From a virus (taxonomy: Duplodnaviria > Heunggongvirae > Uroviricota > Caudoviricetes), in the IMG/VR virus record IMGVR_UViG_2695420685_000015: a stretch of 50,864 nt of DNA; one strand, written 5' to 3'. Every line of letters begins with the position of its first letter. The stretch's first letter is position 1. The notes under the pieces were generated by a model, which searched no databases, was not told the origin of the DNA, and saw only the letters and a list, made by a program, of their open reading frames with translations. This document shows positions 10,613-17,634 of this stretch, one piece after another. The position numbers and the translations under genes are program-made.

Positions 10613-10639
10613 AGGTGGTGCATTGCACCACCTTTTTAT
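10613..10639. terminator. bidirectional terminator between UmuD-prime-like gene and apbC
   Basis: aggtggtgcattgcaccacct hairpin then ttttta. Confidence 0.65.
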
Positions 10640-11739
10640 CACACTGCGCGGAATGCGATTTCGCCAGGTATTACTTCACCTTGCCAATACATTTGGGCAG
10701 CAACGCGATCTGCGAGGTCACGATAAATAGCCGTAAATTCGCTATCTGGACGACTAATAACGGTTGGTGTTCCGTTATCCAGATCTTCACGAAGAGAGAT
10801 ATGAAGTGGCATTTGGCCTAACAACTGCGTGTTGTATTTCTCGGCCAGTTTCTGTGCGCCACCGGTGCCAAAAATTGGCTCGTGATGACCGCAGTTACTG
10901 CAAATATGCACACTCATGTTTTCGACGATACCTAGTACCGGCACTTCGACTTTTTCGAACATCACAATGCCTTTCTTCGCATCGATCAGCGCGATGTCTT
11001 GCGGCGTAGTTACCACAACCGCACCAGTTACAGGAATGTTCTGCGCCAGCGTCAACTGAATATCACCAGTGCCCGGCGGCATATCGAGAACGAGATAGTC
11101 CAGATCAGGCCATAGAGTTTCCTGCAACATCTGCATCAGCGCCTTGCTGGCCATCGGTCCACGCCACACCATTGCATTGTCGTCGGTGACCAGATAACCA
11201 ATAGAGTTGGTTGCCAGGCCATGAGACATGATAGGTGCCATGTGAGTACCGTCAGGTGAGGTTGGACGTTGGTTTTCCGCGCCCAGCATGGTTGGAATTG
11301 ATGGACCATAGATATCGGCATCCAAAATACCAACTTTCGCACCTTCAGCAGCCAAAGCCAGTGCCAAGTTTACTGCTGTGGACGATTTGCCTACACCGCC
11401 CTTGCCTGAGCTTACGGCGATAATATTCTTAACACCATTAATGCCTGGTTGGTTTTTGACGCGCTTAAGCGTGGCAATGTTGTACGACAGCTTCCAGTCA
11501 ATAGCCTTTGCGCCAGTGATACGGAGCAGATCACCACTACATTGCTCTTTCAGGTCTTCAAAAGGCTTATTCCACACGAAAGGCATGATTAGTTCGACAT
11601 GCAGTGTGTCATCCATCAACGCAACATGGTGTAACGCTTTAAGCGTAGTCAGGTTGTGTTTCAGGGTTGGGTGCTGAAAATTAGCCAGCGTACCGGCTAC
11701 CATTGCTCTCAGGGCATCCGGCGATTTGGACTCGCTCAT
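10639..11739 (-). CDS. apbC: iron-sulfur cluster carrier ATPase ApbC/Mrp
   Basis: 366 aa; deviant Walker A SSGKGGVGKSSTAVNLA, C-terminal CSNCGH motif; AAGGAGA RBS; from memory near-identical to E. coli Mrp. Confidence 0.95.
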   Translation of the reverse strand: MSESKSPDALRAMVAGTLANFQHPTLKHNLTTLKALHHVALMDDTLHVELIMPFVWNKPFEDLKEQCSGDLLRITGAKAIDWKLSYNIATLKRVKNQPGINGVKNIIAVSSGKGGVGKSSTAVNLALALAAEGAKVGILDADIYGPSIPTMLGAENQRPTSPDGTHMAPIMSHGLATNSIGYLVTDDNAMVWRGPMASKALMQMLQETLWPDLDYLVLDMPPGTGDIQLTLAQNIPVTGAVVVTTPQDIALIDAKKGIVMFEKVEVPVLGIVENMSVHICSNCGHHEPIFGTGGAQKLAEKYNTQLLGQMPLHISLREDLDNGTPTVISRPDSEFTAIYRDLADRVAAQMYWQGEVIPGEIAFRAV

Positions 11740-11896
11740 CCCGTCTCCTTTATTTTAATTTGCGCAATTGTCGCCTTGTAGTGTACTCCAGCTGCGACAT
11801 TTAATCATTTATGAGAAATGCTGTTATCACATGGCAGACATAAGGCCATTTTGTTACTATCAAGCCCCTTTTCACTACAAAGAAGTAATGCCTACT

Positions 11897-13930
11897 ATGA
11901 CCCAAGTCGCGAAGAAAATTCTGGTGACGTGCGCGCTGCCGTACGCTAACGGCTCAATCCACCTCGGCCATATGCTGGAGCACATCCAGGCTGATGTCTG
12001 GGTTCGTTACCAGCGAATGCGCGGCCACGAGGTTAATTTCATCTGTGCCGACGATGCCCACGGTACGCCGATCATGCTGAAAGCACAGCAACTTGGTATC
12101 ACACCGGAGCAGATGATTGGCGAAATGAGTCAGGAACACCAGACTGATTTCGCAGGCTTTAACATCAGCTATGACAACTATCACTCGACGCACAGCGAAG
12201 AGAACCGTCAGTTGTCTGAGCTTATCTATACTCGCCTGAAAGAGAACGGTTTTATTAAAAATCGCACTATCTCTCAGTTGTACGACCCGGAAAAAGGCAT
12301 GTTCCTGCCGGATCGTTTTGTGAAAGGCACCTGCCCGAAATGTAAAGCGCCAGATCAATACGGCGATAACTGTGAAGTTTGCGGCGCGACCTACAGCCCG
12401 ACTGAACTGATCGAGCCGAAATCGGTGGTTTCTGGTGCTACCCCGGTAATGCGTGATTCTGAACACTTCTTCTTTGATCTGCCCTCTTTCAGCGAAATGT
12501 TGCAGGCATGGACCCGCAGCGGTGCGTTGCAGGAGCAGGTGGCAAACAAAATGCAGGAGTGGTTTGAATCTGGTCTGCAACAGTGGGATATCTCCCGCGA
12601 CGCACCTTACTTCGGTTTTGAAATTCCGAACGCGCCGGGTAAATATTTCTACGTCTGGCTGGACGCACCGATTGGCTACATGGGTTCCTTCAAGAATCTG
12701 TGCGACAAGCGCGGCGACACTACCAGCTTCGATGAATACTGGAAGAAAGACTCCACCGCCGAGCTGTACCACTTCATCGGTAAAGATATCGTTTACTTCC
12801 ACAGCCTGTTCTGGCCTGCCATGCTGGAAGGCAGCAACTTCCGCAAGCCGACCAACCTGTTTGTTCACGGCTATGTGACGGTGAACGGCGCGAAGATGTC
12901 CAAGTCTCGCGGCACCTTTATTAAAGCCAGCACCTGGTTGAATCATTTTGACGCTGACAGCCTGCGTTACTACTACACTGCGAAACTCTCTTCGCGCATT
13001 GATGATATCGATCTCAACCTGGAGGATTTCGTTCAGCGTGTGAATGCCGATATCGTGAACAAAGTGGTTAACCTGGCGTCCCGTAACGCTGGCTTTATCA
13101 ATAAGCGTTTTGACGGTGTGCTGGCAAGCGAGCTGGCTGACCCGCAGTTGTACAAAACCTTCACTGATGCCGCTGAAGTGATTGGTGAAGCGTGGGAAAG
13201 CCGCGAATTTGGTAAAGCTATCCGTGAAATCATGGCACTGGCTGACCTGGCTAACCGCTATGTCGACGAGCAGGCTCCTTGGGTAGTCGCAAAACAGGAA
13301 GGTCGCGATGCTGACCTGCAGGCGATTTGCTCAATGGGCATCAACCTGTTCCGCGTGCTGATGACTTACCTGAAACCGGTACTGCCGAAACTGACAGAAC
13401 GTGCGGAAGCATTCCTGAATACGGAACTGACCTGGGATGGCATCCAGCAACCGCTGCTGGGCCATAAAGTGAATCCGTTCAAAGCACTGTATAACCGTAT
13501 CGACATGAAACAGGTGGAAGCATTGGTGGAAGCGTCTAAAGAAGAAGTGAAAGCTACTGCCGCGCCAGTTACTGGCCCGCTGGCAGACGACCCGATTCAG
13601 GAAACCATCACCTTTGACGACTTTGCCAAAGTTGACCTGCGCGTGGCACTGATCGAAAACGCAGAGTTTGTTGAAGGTTCTGACAAACTGCTGCGCCTGA
13701 CGCTGGATCTCGGCGGTGAAAAACGCAATGTCTTCTCAGGCATCCGTTCTGCTTATCCAGACCCACAGGCACTGATTGGTCGTCACACCATTATGGTGGC
13801 TAACCTGGCTCCGCGTAAGATGCGCTTCGGCATCTCCGAAGGTATGGTGATGGCTGCTGGCCCCGGCGGGAAAGATATCTTCCTGTTAAGCCCGGATGCT
13901 GGTGCTAAACCTGGCCACCAGGTTAAGTAA
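11897..13930 (+). CDS. metG: methionyl-tRNA synthetase
   Basis: 677 aa from ATG 11897 (track start 11768 is an upstream extension); [15 protein letters not shown] motif, KMSKS motif, CPKC...CEVC zinc knuckles, C-terminal tRNA-binding domain; from memory ~99% identical to E. coli MetG. Confidence 0.97.
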
Positions 13931-13950
13931 TTAAGCAACCTCTGTTCGCA

Positions 13951-13978
13951 ATGCCCGGCAACACGCTGGGCATTTTTC
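13951..13978 (+). terminator. metG terminator
   Basis: atgcccggcaacacgctgggcat hairpin followed by ttttc. Confidence 0.55.
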
Positions 13979-14014
13979 ATATAGACACAATCCCTCCTGA
14001 TTTACACAAGCCCT

Positions 14015-14079
14015 AAAACAATTTGTTTTCTACCTTTTGTTGATTGAGATAATAAGCCACATAAGAAAACAAATTGTTT
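14015..14079 (+). promoter_or_regulatory. class-A promoter/operator copy 5 (both palindrome copies)
   Basis: AAAACAATTTGTTTT at 14015-14029, TGaGATAAT, then AGAAAACAAATTGTTT at 14064-14079. Confidence 0.55.
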
Positions 14080-14092
14080 CGGAGTGGTTGAA

Positions 14093-14392
14093 ATGTTGAA
14101 CATTACCCAAGCCTACCAGGTGGCATTGATCAGTTCATCTCATACATCAGAGGAAGATGCTCGCCGATTCATGATCGCAAGCAATGAGCTGGATTGGGTT
14201 TCACAAATTGATGGCGGTTGTATTGTCCACGCCGGGTTACAGGATGATGTCTGGAAAGACGACTTGCGTCGATATGGTATATCCGAAGGCGCGATTGCTA
14301 ACATTCAGAAAGTACTTGATGTAGGCTTTGACTCTGTACATTTTGATTGTGGTGCGCCGATCGTTGAAGGGCTTGAGTGCTGGTGTTGGTAG
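14093..14392 (+). CDS. hypothetical protein
   Basis: ATG 14093 with GGAG RBS (track start 14084 is GTG); 99 aa. Confidence 0.5.
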   Translation: MLNITQAYQVALISSSHTSEEDARRFMIASNELDWVSQIDGGCIVHAGLQDDVWKDDLRRYGISEGAIANIQKVLDVGFDSVHFDCGAPIVEGLECWCW

Positions 14393-14523
14393 AGTGTATA
14401 AGCGGATCAATGAGTTACGGAAACAGTTAATAATGAGGAGCTTGTAATAAGCTGTATACCCTAGAAAAGCTAGACTAGGGAATAAAATGACGTGAAACTG
14501 GGCGAGACAGTAAATAATTCCGA

Positions 14524-15753
14524 ATGATAATTGAACAAATAACCCCTTGCTCGGAGCTTGGAATGACTGATACCGCTTTTTCAAAATCGTTACAAAAAGA
14601 AGTCGATCCTGAGCAGTACTTGGCGCTAAAGAATTTAGATGACAGCTCGGTTCATGCTATTGCCCGTGACGATATCATCTGCCCCATTTGCAAAGTTGGA
14701 GGTGGTTCGTTCGTTAGAGCCACTAGGAATGGTGGCTATCACAAGAAGGCGCATTTCAGATTTACCGGTGAAGATGGTCAAGGCCATCATCCATCATGTG
14801 ATTTCTATGGAGATAGACTAACATCTGAGGTGAAGCAGCACCTTGTCTCATTCACAAAAGATCGAACAAAGTATTCGCAGGTAATACGAAAGCTGGTCTG
14901 TGCCGGCATACAGGAAGGGATATTTACTCAAGAAAAAATGTGGCAGATGAGGGAATGGTTCTTCAATAAGCGAAAGGATTCCACATTTGAAATATGGTTA
15001 GAAAGCGAGCATTTAGACTGGCTTTATTATATTAGTGGGTTACGTGATGCATATCTAGCATGGACAACTCCTGATATTCTACCTTTCGCGCCCATTCAGG
15101 TTACTGTGCCTGGTTTTTCTTGGAAGCGTGCGATTGACAAAGAGGTGCTAAGAGTTCACATCAAGACTCTCCAGCAATTGCGTGAAATTTCAGTCTCACA
15201 TAGAGACATTGCTGTAATCTTAGAACACATAAACAATAATCGTGACCGCACAATTCTCGATCCATCGCATTTGGAGGACGAGATAAGTAAGACCTGTAAG
15301 CTTACTAGTTTTGTGATGGGCAATTACATTGAGTTTCAGACAAAAACGGTTAGCGACAGAGCATACGGGGAAGCTAAGTTTCTGGCATTTGCAGCACTTT
15401 TGTTGTTCGTGTCAGATTGGGACCTCAACATTGCTATTGGTAAGTTTTCTAAGATTGCCAGAGTGAAGGAGGTTGATGACATGCTGGCTGGTAATTTCAT
15501 TGGTCTTAATCCTTACTTCCGATACGACCTGGCTAATGCAGTGAAGAGATTGCAGGATAACTGGCCGATTGAATACCAAGAGTTGGAGCATTGGAATGTT
15601 GAGAAATCCATGCGTGACGCATATGAAAAGTGGCGTGCGACAGAGCCTGAATTCGCTCCACCCCTATTGCCAGACTTGTATATTGCCAAACATGAGAAAG
15701 AAGTCGCACAAGACGAGCAAGTCAGGCAGTGGATTAAGAACGGGGATGTTTGA
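14524..15753 (+). CDS. hypothetical protein with Cys/His zinc-ribbon-like motif
   Basis: 409 aa; CPICK...HHPSCDFY cluster; start could instead be ATG 14563. Confidence 0.55.
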   Translation: MIIEQITPCSELGMTDTAFSKSLQKEVDPEQYLALKNLDDSSVHAIARDDIICPICKVGGGSFVRATRNGGYHKKAHFRFTGEDGQGHHPSCDFYGDRLTSEVKQHLVSFTKDRTKYSQVIRKLVCAGIQEGIFTQEKMWQMREWFFNKRKDSTFEIWLESEHLDWLYYISGLRDAYLAWTTPDILPFAPIQVTVPGFSWKRAIDKEVLRVHIKTLQQLREISVSHRDIAVILEHINNNRDRTILDPSHLEDEISKTCKLTSFVMGNYIEFQTKTVSDRAYGEAKFLAFAALLLFVSDWDLNIAIGKFSKIARVKEVDDMLAGNFIGLNPYFRYDLANAVKRLQDNWPIEYQELEHWNVEKSMRDAYEKWRATEPEFAPPLLPDLYIAKHEKEVAQDEQVRQWIKNGDV

Positions 15754-15884
15754 GTGTAATTAGCTTAATCAATCAGTTGATAATGGCGGTCACAATTTGA
15801 TTCTTTTCTATAAGAATCCGTTGATCGCCACTACTCTTCTTCCATACCTGCAATCACACCTTTAAATATCAATAGGTTAACGTT

Positions 15885-16640
15885 GTTTATACCAATAATA
15901 AAACAACTAAATAACAGATCAACGAAACGTCAACGCTTTCACCCGATTTGGTCTAAAAAATTGACGTATTCACACATCACTTCTTATACCCGTAATTCTA
16001 CGCAGCAGACAGCGCCACAGCGTCCAATTTTCACCACAGACGACCCAACACACTACCAACAAAAACACACGCTCAAAATCACTCCCATTGCGTTACATAA
16101 CTATATAAACAACTTATTTTCAGCTATAACAAAACAACTAAATAACACACATGCCATTCCCCAAAACAACCAACCTCTTTATGGCAGGCTACCGAAAAGA
16201 CCCACCTCTTCTCCCCAGGCTACCGGACAGCCAACCTAACTTTCACAGGCAATCCGAAAACATTCATACGCGCGATACCCACGACACGCCATTCCCCAAA
16301 CAGCGAAGAAACACCAGAATCACTGAAAACCCAACGAAGCCTGTAACCGCAAGGATTCTCTCAATCCCAAAAGACACGAAACATAACAATCACGGGAAAC
16401 GCCATTACCCAATACACGAATAACTACAAAAGCCCTTCACACACTCCAGACAAACAACTCAAACACAATAACGAAAGGATTCGCCCACCTGCCATTACTC
16501 CATACATGGAGAAGAACAATCACCAAAACGACGAGAACACCCCATAGAAGAACCACCGCAAAACGAACGAAACCACATACACCGACAGAGAAAACAACAC
16601 ACCCAATTCACCAACAGAAATAGTCGCCGTATAGAACATT
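15885..16640 (+). other. A+C-rich strand-asymmetric ORF-free tract (candidate noncoding RNA or structural DNA element)
   Basis: About 75-80% A+C on the + strand over ~760 bp in sampled 60-nt blocks; no ATG-initiated ORF; internal short repeats (aaaacaactaaataaca twice, ccattccccaaa twice). Confidence 0.6.
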
Positions 16641-16736
16641 CTGGAAGGAGTGAGCATTAACGCCTATAGAGAGGTTGAGACAGATAAAACACAACATGCA
16701 TAGCGAAGAAGCCAGGTATGTATAAGTGGGGAGGGA

Positions 16737-16759
16737 AGGAGGGGTGTCGCCTCCTTTTT
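16737..16759 (+). terminator. rho-independent terminator downstream of A+C-rich tract
   Basis: aggaggggtgtcgcctcct hairpin followed by tttt. Confidence 0.55.
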
Positions 16760-16822
16760 CGTATTTATTCAACTCCTGATTTTATCCCCCGTAACACCCC
16801 TACGGTCAGCCTTCGGTCCATA

Positions 16823-16960
16823 CAGGGAAAAGGCTGCATCCCGCTACAGAAACGGCTGGGTTGCCTTCGGGGAACGGCTGGAGGTTTTCAGGGAAACGGT
16901 CGAGTTGCCTGTGTGGATTTCGGGAGAAGGCTCGATGCCGGTTCAGGAACGGTGGCGTAC
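16823..16960. repeat. iteron-like direct repeat cluster (core GGAAACGGC)
   Basis: cagggaaaaggctgcatccc, cagaaacggctggg, gggaacggctgga, gggaaacggtcgag, gggagaaggctcga, caggaacggtggcg at about 21-30 bp spacing. Confidence 0.6.
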
Positions 16961-17257
16961 CGGTATAGCGAGAGGGAGAGTTGCGGCTACCCACCTGTAA
17001 TGTGCGGGAAGAAGAGAGGCGCTCACGTAGGCGGACTTGCTTACCGCTGGATTCCCTCTGAATGCCCAGCTACAGCGTAATTGTGCCAGACAGCCAACGG
17101 GTCACAATCGATTTCAGTAGGTTTTCGGGGAGAGGATTATTCTGCCCACCAGCCACTAAATCAGAATAATGTAAAAAGTGTACTCGGTACTGAACCTGAA
17201 AACTCACTACCAAAACCACATTCACCGGAATAAAATCCTTTTTCGCCTGTGCGTTAT

Positions 17258-17292
17258 TGCGATAATAACACCATCAAGAAAACATGTTGTTT
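17258..17292 (+). promoter_or_regulatory. class-A promoter/operator copy 6
   Basis: TGcGATAAT then AGAAAACATGTTGTTT at 17277-17292; first in-frame ATG 17284 lies inside the motif. Confidence 0.55.
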
Positions 17293-17304
17293 AAGGATTG
17301 CTTT

Positions 17305-17634
17305 ATGTTTGCAAATATCGACATCAACCAAATCAAGAAATTAACTCAAAAAGAGTTTGATCAGTTTTATGAGTTAGAAGGTTGGTCTTCCACTCTGATC
17401 AATTCGCGGTGGGTGCTTGAGCTGATGACTCGTGATGACGCACCTGCTTTGATGATTTGCGACATGGGTGAAGATGCTGACTTTATGGATATGAGCGAAT
17501 TTTGTGTGGACACATACAACCGCAGCCAGAAGTACTACTTCACATGCGATAGCGAAAATGACGTGATTTCTAAGGTCTATCTTCACCTCGTCCAGCATTG
17601 GGACGTTCAGGAGTTTCTTGAGATATTCGCGTAA
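17305..17634 (+). CDS. hypothetical protein
   Basis: Second in-frame ATG with AAGGAT RBS; 109 aa. Confidence 0.5.
   Translation: MFANIDINQIKKLTQKEFDQFYELEGWSSTLINSRWVLELMTRDDAPALMICDMGEDADFMDMSEFCVDTYNRSQKYYFTCDSENDVISKVYLHLVQHWDVQEFLEIFA

Follow-up and report, generated by a model that had tools for sequence, protein, structure and literature searches.

A swappable gene of SSU5/pHCM2-type phage-plasmids encodes a protein of an undescribed family whose relatives lie beside anti-phage systems

Coding sequence, cassette, and slot

A gene encoding a protein of 396 amino acids is located on the + strand of a 50,864-nucleotide stretch of Caudoviricetes DNA (IMG/VR record IMGVR_UViG_2695420685_000015), the whole of which is referred to here as the window. 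Two phage records match the region of the gene at about 95% (Escherichia phage Cyrano and CMS-2020a), and many circular Escherichia coli plasmids of about 110 kb match it as well. A homologous protein is present in Salmonella phage SSU5 and in the S. Typhi plasmid pHCM2. Because of these phage and plasmid matches and the homologues in SSU5 and pHCM2, the window is, as judged from its sequence, part of an SSU5/pHCM2-type phage-plasmid of E. coli. In an identical copy annotated in RefSeq, the gene is preceded by nucleotide-metabolism and replication genes, an apbC/minD-like gene, metG, and a DUF5983 gene, and is followed by about 1.6 kb of unannotated DNA, small hypothetical genes, a regulator, a helicase, ParB-like genes, and a terminase. 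The short preceding gene of the window (14084–14392) was identified as DUF5983 by Pfam. No bigger open reading frame (ORF) occurs between metG and approximately 20.8 kb, in agreement with the first-pass annotation, which had called the gene the largest accessory gene in its array. The features of the gene and its cassette are:

14392..15776, + strand: swappable cassette, 1385 bp, delimited by a blastn comparison of the window with Cyrano
14504..14531, + strand: weak candidate for a sigma-70-like promoter (GAGACA-16-GATAAT), internal to the cassette, from a consensus scan only
14524..14562, + strand: 13-codon 5' extension of the longest ORF, probably untranslated, overlapping the promoter-like -10 element and the ribosome-binding site
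14553..14556, + strand: GGAG Shine-Dalgarno sequence, 6 nt ahead of ATG 14563, read from the sequence
14563..15753, + strand: coding sequence of 396 amino acids, stop codon included, supported by the ORF, start evidence, dN/dS, and PHROG 12525

The gene had been described in the first-pass annotation as encoding 409 amino acids. The ORF 14524..15753 exists on the + strand and is a real gene, but the true start is very probably ATG 14563, which shortens the protein to 396 amino acids; residue numbering follows this shorter form. The start at 14524 was rejected in favour of ATG 14563 because of the spacing of the GGAG sequence, the N-termini of the homologues, the boundary of nucleotide homology, and the RefSeq/PGAP gene call. 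Inspection of the sequence identified no GGAG ahead of 14524. In 97% of 201 aligned homologues the first methionine corresponds to ATG 14563, in the context M-x-x-T-A-[FY]-S, and none of them contains the 13-codon extension. At the nucleotide level, ATG 14563 is the exact point from which the sequence is homologous to the copies in pHCM2 and Enterobacter; the DNA upstream is unrelated. The PGAP call is a hypothetical protein of 396 amino acids (WP_047659412.1, 99–100% identical). Comparison with copies that are 88–89% identical in nucleotides yielded a dN/dS of 0.13–0.14. The ORF is a genuine gene under purifying selection and not a chance reading frame.

The slot occupied by the gene is hypervariable, and the gene behaves as a one-gene mobile cassette. 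In Cyrano, the cassette is replaced by 785 bp with a gene for a 244-amino-acid protein, whereas the flanks are 95–97% identical; direct comparison of the two proteins showed no kinship. Slot variants were compared across about 300 related plasmids (including L079, L080, L081, and L001), and the cassette is present in 34 of the 299 plasmids that match the flanking stretch. The slot can also be empty, or hold a small gene pair (61 and 186 amino acids) or the Cyrano-type gene, whose 244-amino-acid product is a coiled-coil protein. In a further layout, a 243-bp DUF1380 family gene takes the place of the DUF5983 gene. Neither the 244-amino-acid nor the 186-amino-acid protein matched a Pfam or PADLOC model. 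In the plasmid collection, the cassette is 99–100% identical in the 34 plasmids, and among the matches listed 31 are from E. coli or E. fergusonii. Of 5426 complete E. coli genomes, 36 contain the cassette, plasmid-borne every time.

Closely related phage-plasmids of about 110 kb from Klebsiella pneumoniae carry a homologue with 69% protein identity. Twenty-nine Enterobacter plasmids match the cassette at 80–90%, and an Enterobacter hormaechei plasmid carries a relative. In this E. hormaechei plasmid, a gene of the GIY-YIG nuclease family is positioned 138 nt upstream of the homologue (L110, 1526–2362). It may encode a homing endonuclease that helps cassettes to move at the slot.

Architecture of the protein and extent of its family

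The Cys/His cluster described in the first-pass annotation is present as CPIC...AHFRF...HHPSC, and its residues C40, C43, H75, and C79 are kept in 99–100% of the 201 homologues. These four conserved ligands form two pairs, CxxC ... HxxxC, the generic arrangement of zinc ribbons and zinc knuckles, and the cluster is predicted to be a zinc site. Similarities to known zinc ribbons are weak and non-significant (aIF2-beta zinc ribbon with E=1.2, InsA and PaaD ribbons in single members). The near-invariant residues other than the ligands are S7, E13, D15, Q18, D37, H64, R66, R130, W132, D233, W286, N311, and N316. An AlphaFold2 model calculated from an alignment of 37 sequences is confident, with a mean pLDDT of 87.8 and a pTM of 0.80. 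The model consists of a beta-rich N-terminal domain of about 100 residues, which contains the four metal ligands, and a subsequent domain of about 300 residues that is mostly helical. The parts of the protein are:

14563..14862, + strand: N-terminal beta-rich domain, residues 1–100, with S7, E13, D15, Q18, and the HFRF strand containing H64 and R66 (alignment, AlphaFold)
14680..14799, + strand: segment of the predicted CCHC zinc site, with C40 at 14680–82, C43 at 14689–91, H75 at 14785–87, and C79 at 14797–99 (alignment conservation)
14863..15750, + strand: C-terminal mainly alpha-helical domain, residues 101–396, with conserved R130/W132 and D233 (alignment, AlphaFold)
Residues 271–286, + strand: hydrophobic helix LLAFxALLLFVSxW, conserved in the alignment
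Residues 310–317 (15490–15513), + strand: GNxIGLNP motif, conserved in the alignment

Besides the Cys/His cluster, no motif had been assigned to the protein earlier, and the searches gave the same outcome. Scans of the protein and of all 37 aligned members with Pfam, NCBIfam, and PADLOC produced scattered sub-threshold matches only, and a sequence search of the PDB, with both the single sequence and the profile, gave no significant match. Structure prediction followed by Foldseek, suggested with the first-pass annotation, delivered a confident model and no fold match: no structure in the PDB or among viral models was matched at E<0.1. Clear homology to a phage protein of structural or housekeeping function, which would have overturned that annotation, was not found either. 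The protein family is an orphan in sequence and fold.

The proposal that the protein is a nuclease found no support. There is no match in Pfam, PADLOC, or the PDB, no HNH, PD-(D/E)xK, or HEPN signature, and no fold match. HNH/His-Me finger nucleases are recognized by an HNH-type profile or a beta-beta-alpha-metal fold with a catalytic histidine, neither of which the protein matched. Inspection of the alignment by eye for HEPN, PD-(D/E)xK, pol-beta nucleotidyltransferase, ADP-ribosyltransferase, and Fic motifs identified none that fits. Pfam scans of the protein and the aligned members detected no helix-turn-helix or known DNA-binding domain. Since the sequence and fold searches were null, identity with a nuclease or another known effector, and likeness to an anti-defence protein of solved structure, are all unsupported.

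The family is small. A profile search of 1.84 billion representative sequences retrieved only 217 proteins, and full-length members have 340–440 amino acids (homologue clusters, n=86). The full-length profile revealed no extra domains or fusions, and a profile of the N-terminal domain found no other architecture. Members are scattered among Gamma-, Alpha-, and Betaproteobacteria, Cyanobacteria, and one Bacteroidota-like marine element. This patchy occurrence across bacterial groups points to horizontal transfer. In the phage collection, four records contain a homologue, all of them SSU5-like. Those in IMG/VR are phage-plasmids and 12 distant contigs, and all 11 of the contigs that were examined have prophage-, satellite-, or island-type neighbours. 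No virulent phage in the phage collection or IMG/VR carries a homologue.

The protein belongs to PHROG 12525, a family of unknown function, which it matches over its full length (E=1.5e-209; residues 14–408 of the 409-amino-acid ORF against positions 1–396 of the 399 in the profile). It is 57% identical to the SSU5 member and 87% identical to the pHCM2 member, and nothing sets it apart from the family, the annotation of which gives no function. The place of the gene in pHCM2 is comparable, since the homologue likewise follows a DUF5983 gene and precedes a tract free of coding sequences. Literature searches with the accession, the PHROG identifier, Gabija accessory genes, and phage-plasmid hot spots found no publication on the protein family. 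It is already known that variable slots of temperate elements hold cargo immunity genes; the family, which is outside Pfam, NCBIfam, and PADLOC 2.0 and without a recognisable fold, is new, as is its putative mechanism.

Gene neighbourhoods of the relatives and possible functions

An analysis of gene co-occurrence, also suggested with the first-pass annotation, showed that relatives of the gene repeatedly adjoin known anti-phage systems. The neighbouring ORFs of 54 genome loci were clustered, and selected neighbours were scanned with hidden Markov models (HMMs). Only three neighbours are recurrent: an integrase and two large proteins. The latter were identified by PADLOC and Pfam, with E-values down to 1e-279, as GajA (OLD-type ATPase and TOPRIM) and GajB (UvrD-like helicase), the components of Gabija. 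By raw count, 18 of the 54 loci have Gabija no more than about 4 kb from the homologue; in one more, L010, there is only a UvrD-like gene, at a distance of about 5 kb. The Gabija neighbours match three different pairs of Gabija HMMs, and the members linked to them are spread over the whole family tree, in which some sister lineages lack Gabija. The arrangements are:

Homologue, GajA, GajB in the same direction: gaps of 73–141 nt, in five lineages (Sphingomonas, Xanthobacter group, Pseudomonas antarctica, Shewanella)
Homologue convergent with GajA-GajB: stop codons of the homologue and GajB 35 nt apart, in the L028 group
Convergent arrangement with an insertion of about 1.9 kb, in the L040 group
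GajA, GajB, homologue in the same direction: offsets of 71–232 nt from the start of the match, in L036, L045, and L051

Several loci combine more than one system. A Sphingobium island (L069) contains an integrase, the homologue, Gabija, and CBASS-type genes; a metagenome-assembled genome (L072) has Olokun, the homologue, and Gabija; and a metagenome contig (L077) carries Lamassu-like genes, PDC-M01, the homologue, and Gabija. In the Halomonas group (L015 and L016, HMM-tested in L015), the Hachiman genes HamA-HamB end 53 nt upstream of the homologue. The SIR2 candidate PDC-S25 follows the homologue in L098–L102, with a gap of 92 nt, and precedes it in L097, with a gap of 51 nt; it was HMM-tested in L097 and L101, and elsewhere there is an ORF of the same size at the same offset. 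L098–L100 also carry a D5-type primase, as found in satellites, and L101 and L102 a DUF927 protein. Further neighbours are a dCTP deaminase with a DUF4365 protein, a reverse transcriptase with SLATT, caspase-like and trypsin-like proteases, and RES-Xre toxin-antitoxin pairs. The carriers include integrase islands of Xanthomonas and Burkholderia, plasmids, and, in Pseudomonas viridiflava, the end of a P2-type phage tail and baseplate gene cluster. The genes upstream of the homologues differ and are unrelated between lineages, so that a conserved partner gene was rejected. Because its relatives live among phage-defence genes, a role of the family in phage-host conflict is well supported.

PDC-S25 is a SIR2_2 protein of about 500 amino acids, and the contigs in which it adjoins family members (L097–L102) are from IMG/VR. 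PDC-S25 and the homologue might be a two-gene unit in their own right.

The reading ranked first, the chances of which are about even, is that the gene would encode a stand-alone, single-protein anti-phage factor of an undescribed family, carried as exchangeable cargo of the phage-plasmid. It is ranked first because the gene follows a pattern used to nominate new defence genes: it travels alone, is dispensable to its carrier, occurs in hot spots of temperate elements and islands wedged against several defence systems, and is missing from lytic phages. Action of a single gene is supported by a cassette that holds this gene only, with no conserved partner and no domain fusions. Presence in 34 of 299 plasmids, alternative cassettes, and the empty state favour accessory cargo, and carriers that are mobile elements typically holding defence genes favour cargo for defence. 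Residues strongly constrained across both domains, together with the dN/dS of 0.13, also favour this reading.

The protein could act as a superinfection-exclusion or abortive-infection factor. The N-terminal beta-rich domain around the CCHC site would recognise a cue of infection, such as a phage protein or a nucleic-acid structure; such a sensor role, named as a possibility in the first-pass annotation, is a reasonable guess for this domain. The fixed C-terminal helical domain would then act, with the invariant R130, D233, N311, and N316 serving either an unrecognised catalytic activity or the stoichiometric binding of a phage or host target. As an outcome, the lysogen, and hence the phage-plasmid, would be protected from competing phages. 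We infer the defence role itself and the abortive outcome and, from the architecture, the division of the protein into sensor and effector parts.

Several points weigh against a stand-alone defence function. The association with defence neighbourhoods is statistical and silent on mechanism, and, with kinship allowed for, it comprises about nine independent Gabija-linked lineages out of about two dozen, not 18. PADLOC 2.0 has no model for the family, no publication on it was found, and no recognisable effector domain was detected with Pfam, NCBIfam, PADLOC, the PDB, or Foldseek. In one integrative and conjugative element, the homologue is positioned between ArdC and a ParB-like gene, flanks that are a typical place for anti-defence or establishment genes. 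The gene of the window is part of an array of small genes with individual promoters, which could be early or establishment genes, and the annotation of one slot variant is DUF1380, a family with genes in the leading regions of plasmids.

The same array, the ArdC and ParB-like flanks, and the DUF1380 family gene in one slot variant of related plasmids are compatible with a counter-defence or establishment protein that would be made upon entry to neutralise a host system, for which Gabija is the obvious candidate; a host protein linked to Gabija could, for example, have given rise to an inhibitor or decoy. The recurrent and specific link to Gabija would then supply the rationale for the target. 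This explanation is rather unlikely. In deep, separate branches the homologues are co-directional with an intact GajA-GajB at 73–141 nt, which would be self-defeating for an inhibitor, and Hachiman, PDC-S25, and other systems also adjoin homologues, so that the link is not exclusive to Gabija. The absence from virulent phages of the phage collection and IMG/VR, and of a fold match to structures in the PDB, also argues against it. Complexes of Gad1 with Gabija were deposited in 2024 and should therefore be in the PDB library that was searched; the protein has no sequence or fold similarity to the anti-Gabija proteins Gad1 and Gad2. The earlier suggestion of an anti-defence protein is thus possible, but co-directional homologues beside intact systems and the absence from virulent phages make it the less likely direction. 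The operon-like spacing can alternatively be explained by an accessory or regulatory partner of neighbouring defence systems, Gabija in particular: a sensor, adaptor, or expression regulator, the phage-plasmid copy of which would act in trans on a host or plasmid system and have little activity of its own. Short distances occur upstream of GajA-GajB (73–141 nt, five lineages), downstream of GajB (71–232 nt, three loci), after HamB (53 nt), and next to PDC-S25 (51–92 nt); a zinc domain could bind DNA or protein, and Gabija is far commoner than any other neighbour found, which leaves room for a specific functional tie to it. Nevertheless, the arrangement with Gabija varies, including the convergent one (35 nt) and the insertion of about 1.9 kb, sister lineages have no Gabija, many copies, the cassette of the window included, have no partner at all, and the PADLOC models of Gabija require GajA and GajB only. 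A partner function is therefore doubtful, and slightly more so than counter-defence. A bolder version, which appears only marginally less probable than the partner function, regards the family as a third participant in Gabija-type immunity that has so far escaped notice. With its zinc domain, the protein would sense or gate GajA-GajB, and perhaps further effectors of the nuclease-helicase or SIR2 kind, and SSU5/pHCM2-like phage-plasmids would have captured the lone copy to manipulate the Gabija of the host. Host Gabija would then be silenced during establishment or redirected against rival phages, and a host immune-regulator fold new to structural databases would be active on both sides of the conflict.

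The defence genes could also be mere neighbouring cargo, and the protein a helper of the mobile element itself, either a DNA-binding regulator or a factor in replication, recombination, or partition. In 11 loci, a same-strand integrase gene is located 1.4–4.4 kb upstream (14 loci belong to the integrase cluster), the gene follows AlpA/Rep-type or small genes in some islands, it is kept more consistently than Gabija in islands of Rhizobiales, and zinc-ribbon-type sites are common in DNA-binding proteins. Such a housekeeping role is nonetheless improbable, since the slot also exists in an empty state; the phage-plasmid can dispense with the gene, which only 34 of 299 plasmids carry. Furthermore, the single-gene cassette moves between unrelated elements (phage-plasmid, integrative and conjugative element, prophage end, satellite-like element), and the Pfam scans detected no helix-turn-helix or known DNA-binding domain. 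Selfish cargo of no benefit to host or element, such as a remnant of an addiction module or a homing passenger, would agree with the clean boundaries of the cassette and with the GIY-YIG nuclease gene directly upstream in the Enterobacter relative. It is very improbable given the strong purifying selection, the conservation across Proteobacteria, Cyanobacteria, and Bacteroidota, and the lack of an antitoxin-like partner gene in the comparison of neighbours.

Among the systems to which a stand-alone anti-phage factor may be compared, RAZR/PD-T7-4 is a single-protein defence composed of an N-terminal zinc-finger sensor and a C-terminal HEPN RNase (PMC13017515). Only the layout is analogous: in both cases, a single protein encoded in defence hot spots has a small zinc domain at its N-terminus and a helical domain after it. 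The HEPN family of RAZR is DUF4145, and a DUF4145 protein is encoded in the same Xanthomonas island as one homologue. Kinship with RAZR was rejected, since there is no DUF4145 or HEPN match and hhalign gave a probability of 0.8% against a DUF4145 protein. The RAZR motif Rx4-6H was ruled out as well, because no histidine follows the conserved R109, R127, or R130 at a distance of 4–6 residues. The protein studied here is about 150 amino acids longer.

Gabija is the most frequent direct neighbour, in the 18 of 54 genome loci and in three further loci. However, the protein lacks ATPase, TOPRIM, and helicase domains, and no published definition of the system includes it as a component. Identity with GajA or GajB was rejected, since the PADLOC, Pfam, and NCBIfam models are matched by the neighbours and not by the protein. 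The protein published as "GajC" of type II Gabija is MazF-like (PMC13069673) and unrelated to it. No Gabija genes were found in the inspected stretch of the phage-plasmid. The candidates designated PDC-S in PADLOC and prophage exclusion genes such as P2 Tin are likewise single genes that temperate elements carry in variable slots, and among elements that are nearly identical in other respects a minority have them. The difference is that the protein has no sequence relationship to any PADLOC 2.0 model. P2 Old is another prophage exclusion gene carried as extra cargo.

If the protein defends, its family would be an addition to the single-gene immune systems, with a fold not recognised so far and presumably with a new principle of effector action or sensing. 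Elements that are common in the clinic already carry the gene: pHCM2, a cryptic plasmid of S. Typhi, the E. coli phage-plasmids of about 110 kb, and, with relatives of the gene, the Enterobacter plasmids and the Klebsiella phage-plasmids. An SSU5-like Klebsiella plasmid has been reported to lower phage burst and plasmid uptake (PMC8969562), and a defence role would help to explain altered phage susceptibility with such plasmids. The pairing with Gabija raises a directly testable question of synergy or regulation between defence genes. If the protein is instead an inhibitor, it would belong to a new anti-defence family, the likely target of which is already named.

Promoter modules, A+C-rich tract, and other genes of the window

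The class-A promoter module of the first-pass annotation was reconstructed as TTGNGATAATAA-N7-AAGAAAACA. It has five matches on the + strand of the window (1990, 4949, 14044, 17257, and 18695), compared with 0.01 expected. Consistent with the earlier statement that the gene has no class-A module of its own, none is present between 14392 and 14562, where the weak sigma-70-like candidate is the sole promoter-like site identified. The nearest module is:

14044..14071, + strand: class-A promoter/operator module upstream of the DUF5983 gene (14084–14392), from a motif scan

Read-through from this module into the cassette is possible because no terminator was predicted between it and 14563. Four of the five modules are positioned just 5' of ORF starts (2038, 4989, 14084, and 18744), and the fifth, at 17257, extends as far as the listed ATG 17284, with the RefSeq start of that gene about 21 nt further downstream. 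Palindromes of the sequence AAACAAnTTGTTT flank the module at 14044, which suggests that the class-A modules may be a shared operator of a common repressor.

The A+C-rich tract, described earlier as lying next to the gene, is downstream of it at 15880–16700, with 40% A and 30% C. It is 0.8 kb long, and the G-rich stretch that comes next has a terminator-like hairpin at 16733–16759 (window 15880–17090). Two short sequences recur in the tract as direct repeats (AAAACAACTAAATAACA twice, ACGCCATTCCCCAAA three times). The tract is 95% identical to Cyrano and is part of the conserved backbone outside the swapped cassette. An Rfam search of 13900–17400 identified no RNA family. The tract has no annotated gene in the RefSeq copy, and in pHCM2 and the Enterobacter relatives about 1.4 kb downstream of the homologue is free of coding sequences. 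It could be a non-coding RNA or a site for replication or partition.

Two further observations concern genes elsewhere in the element. The stretch 10639–13930 of the window contains a full-length methionyl-tRNA synthetase gene, metG, beside the gene of the apbC/minD-like ATPase, and both are kept in Cyrano and the RefSeq plasmids. In a RefSeq copy of the same plasmid type (L074, 1252–1728), dfrA51, annotated as a trimethoprim-resistant dihydrofolate reductase gene, adjoins the gene of thymidylate synthase.

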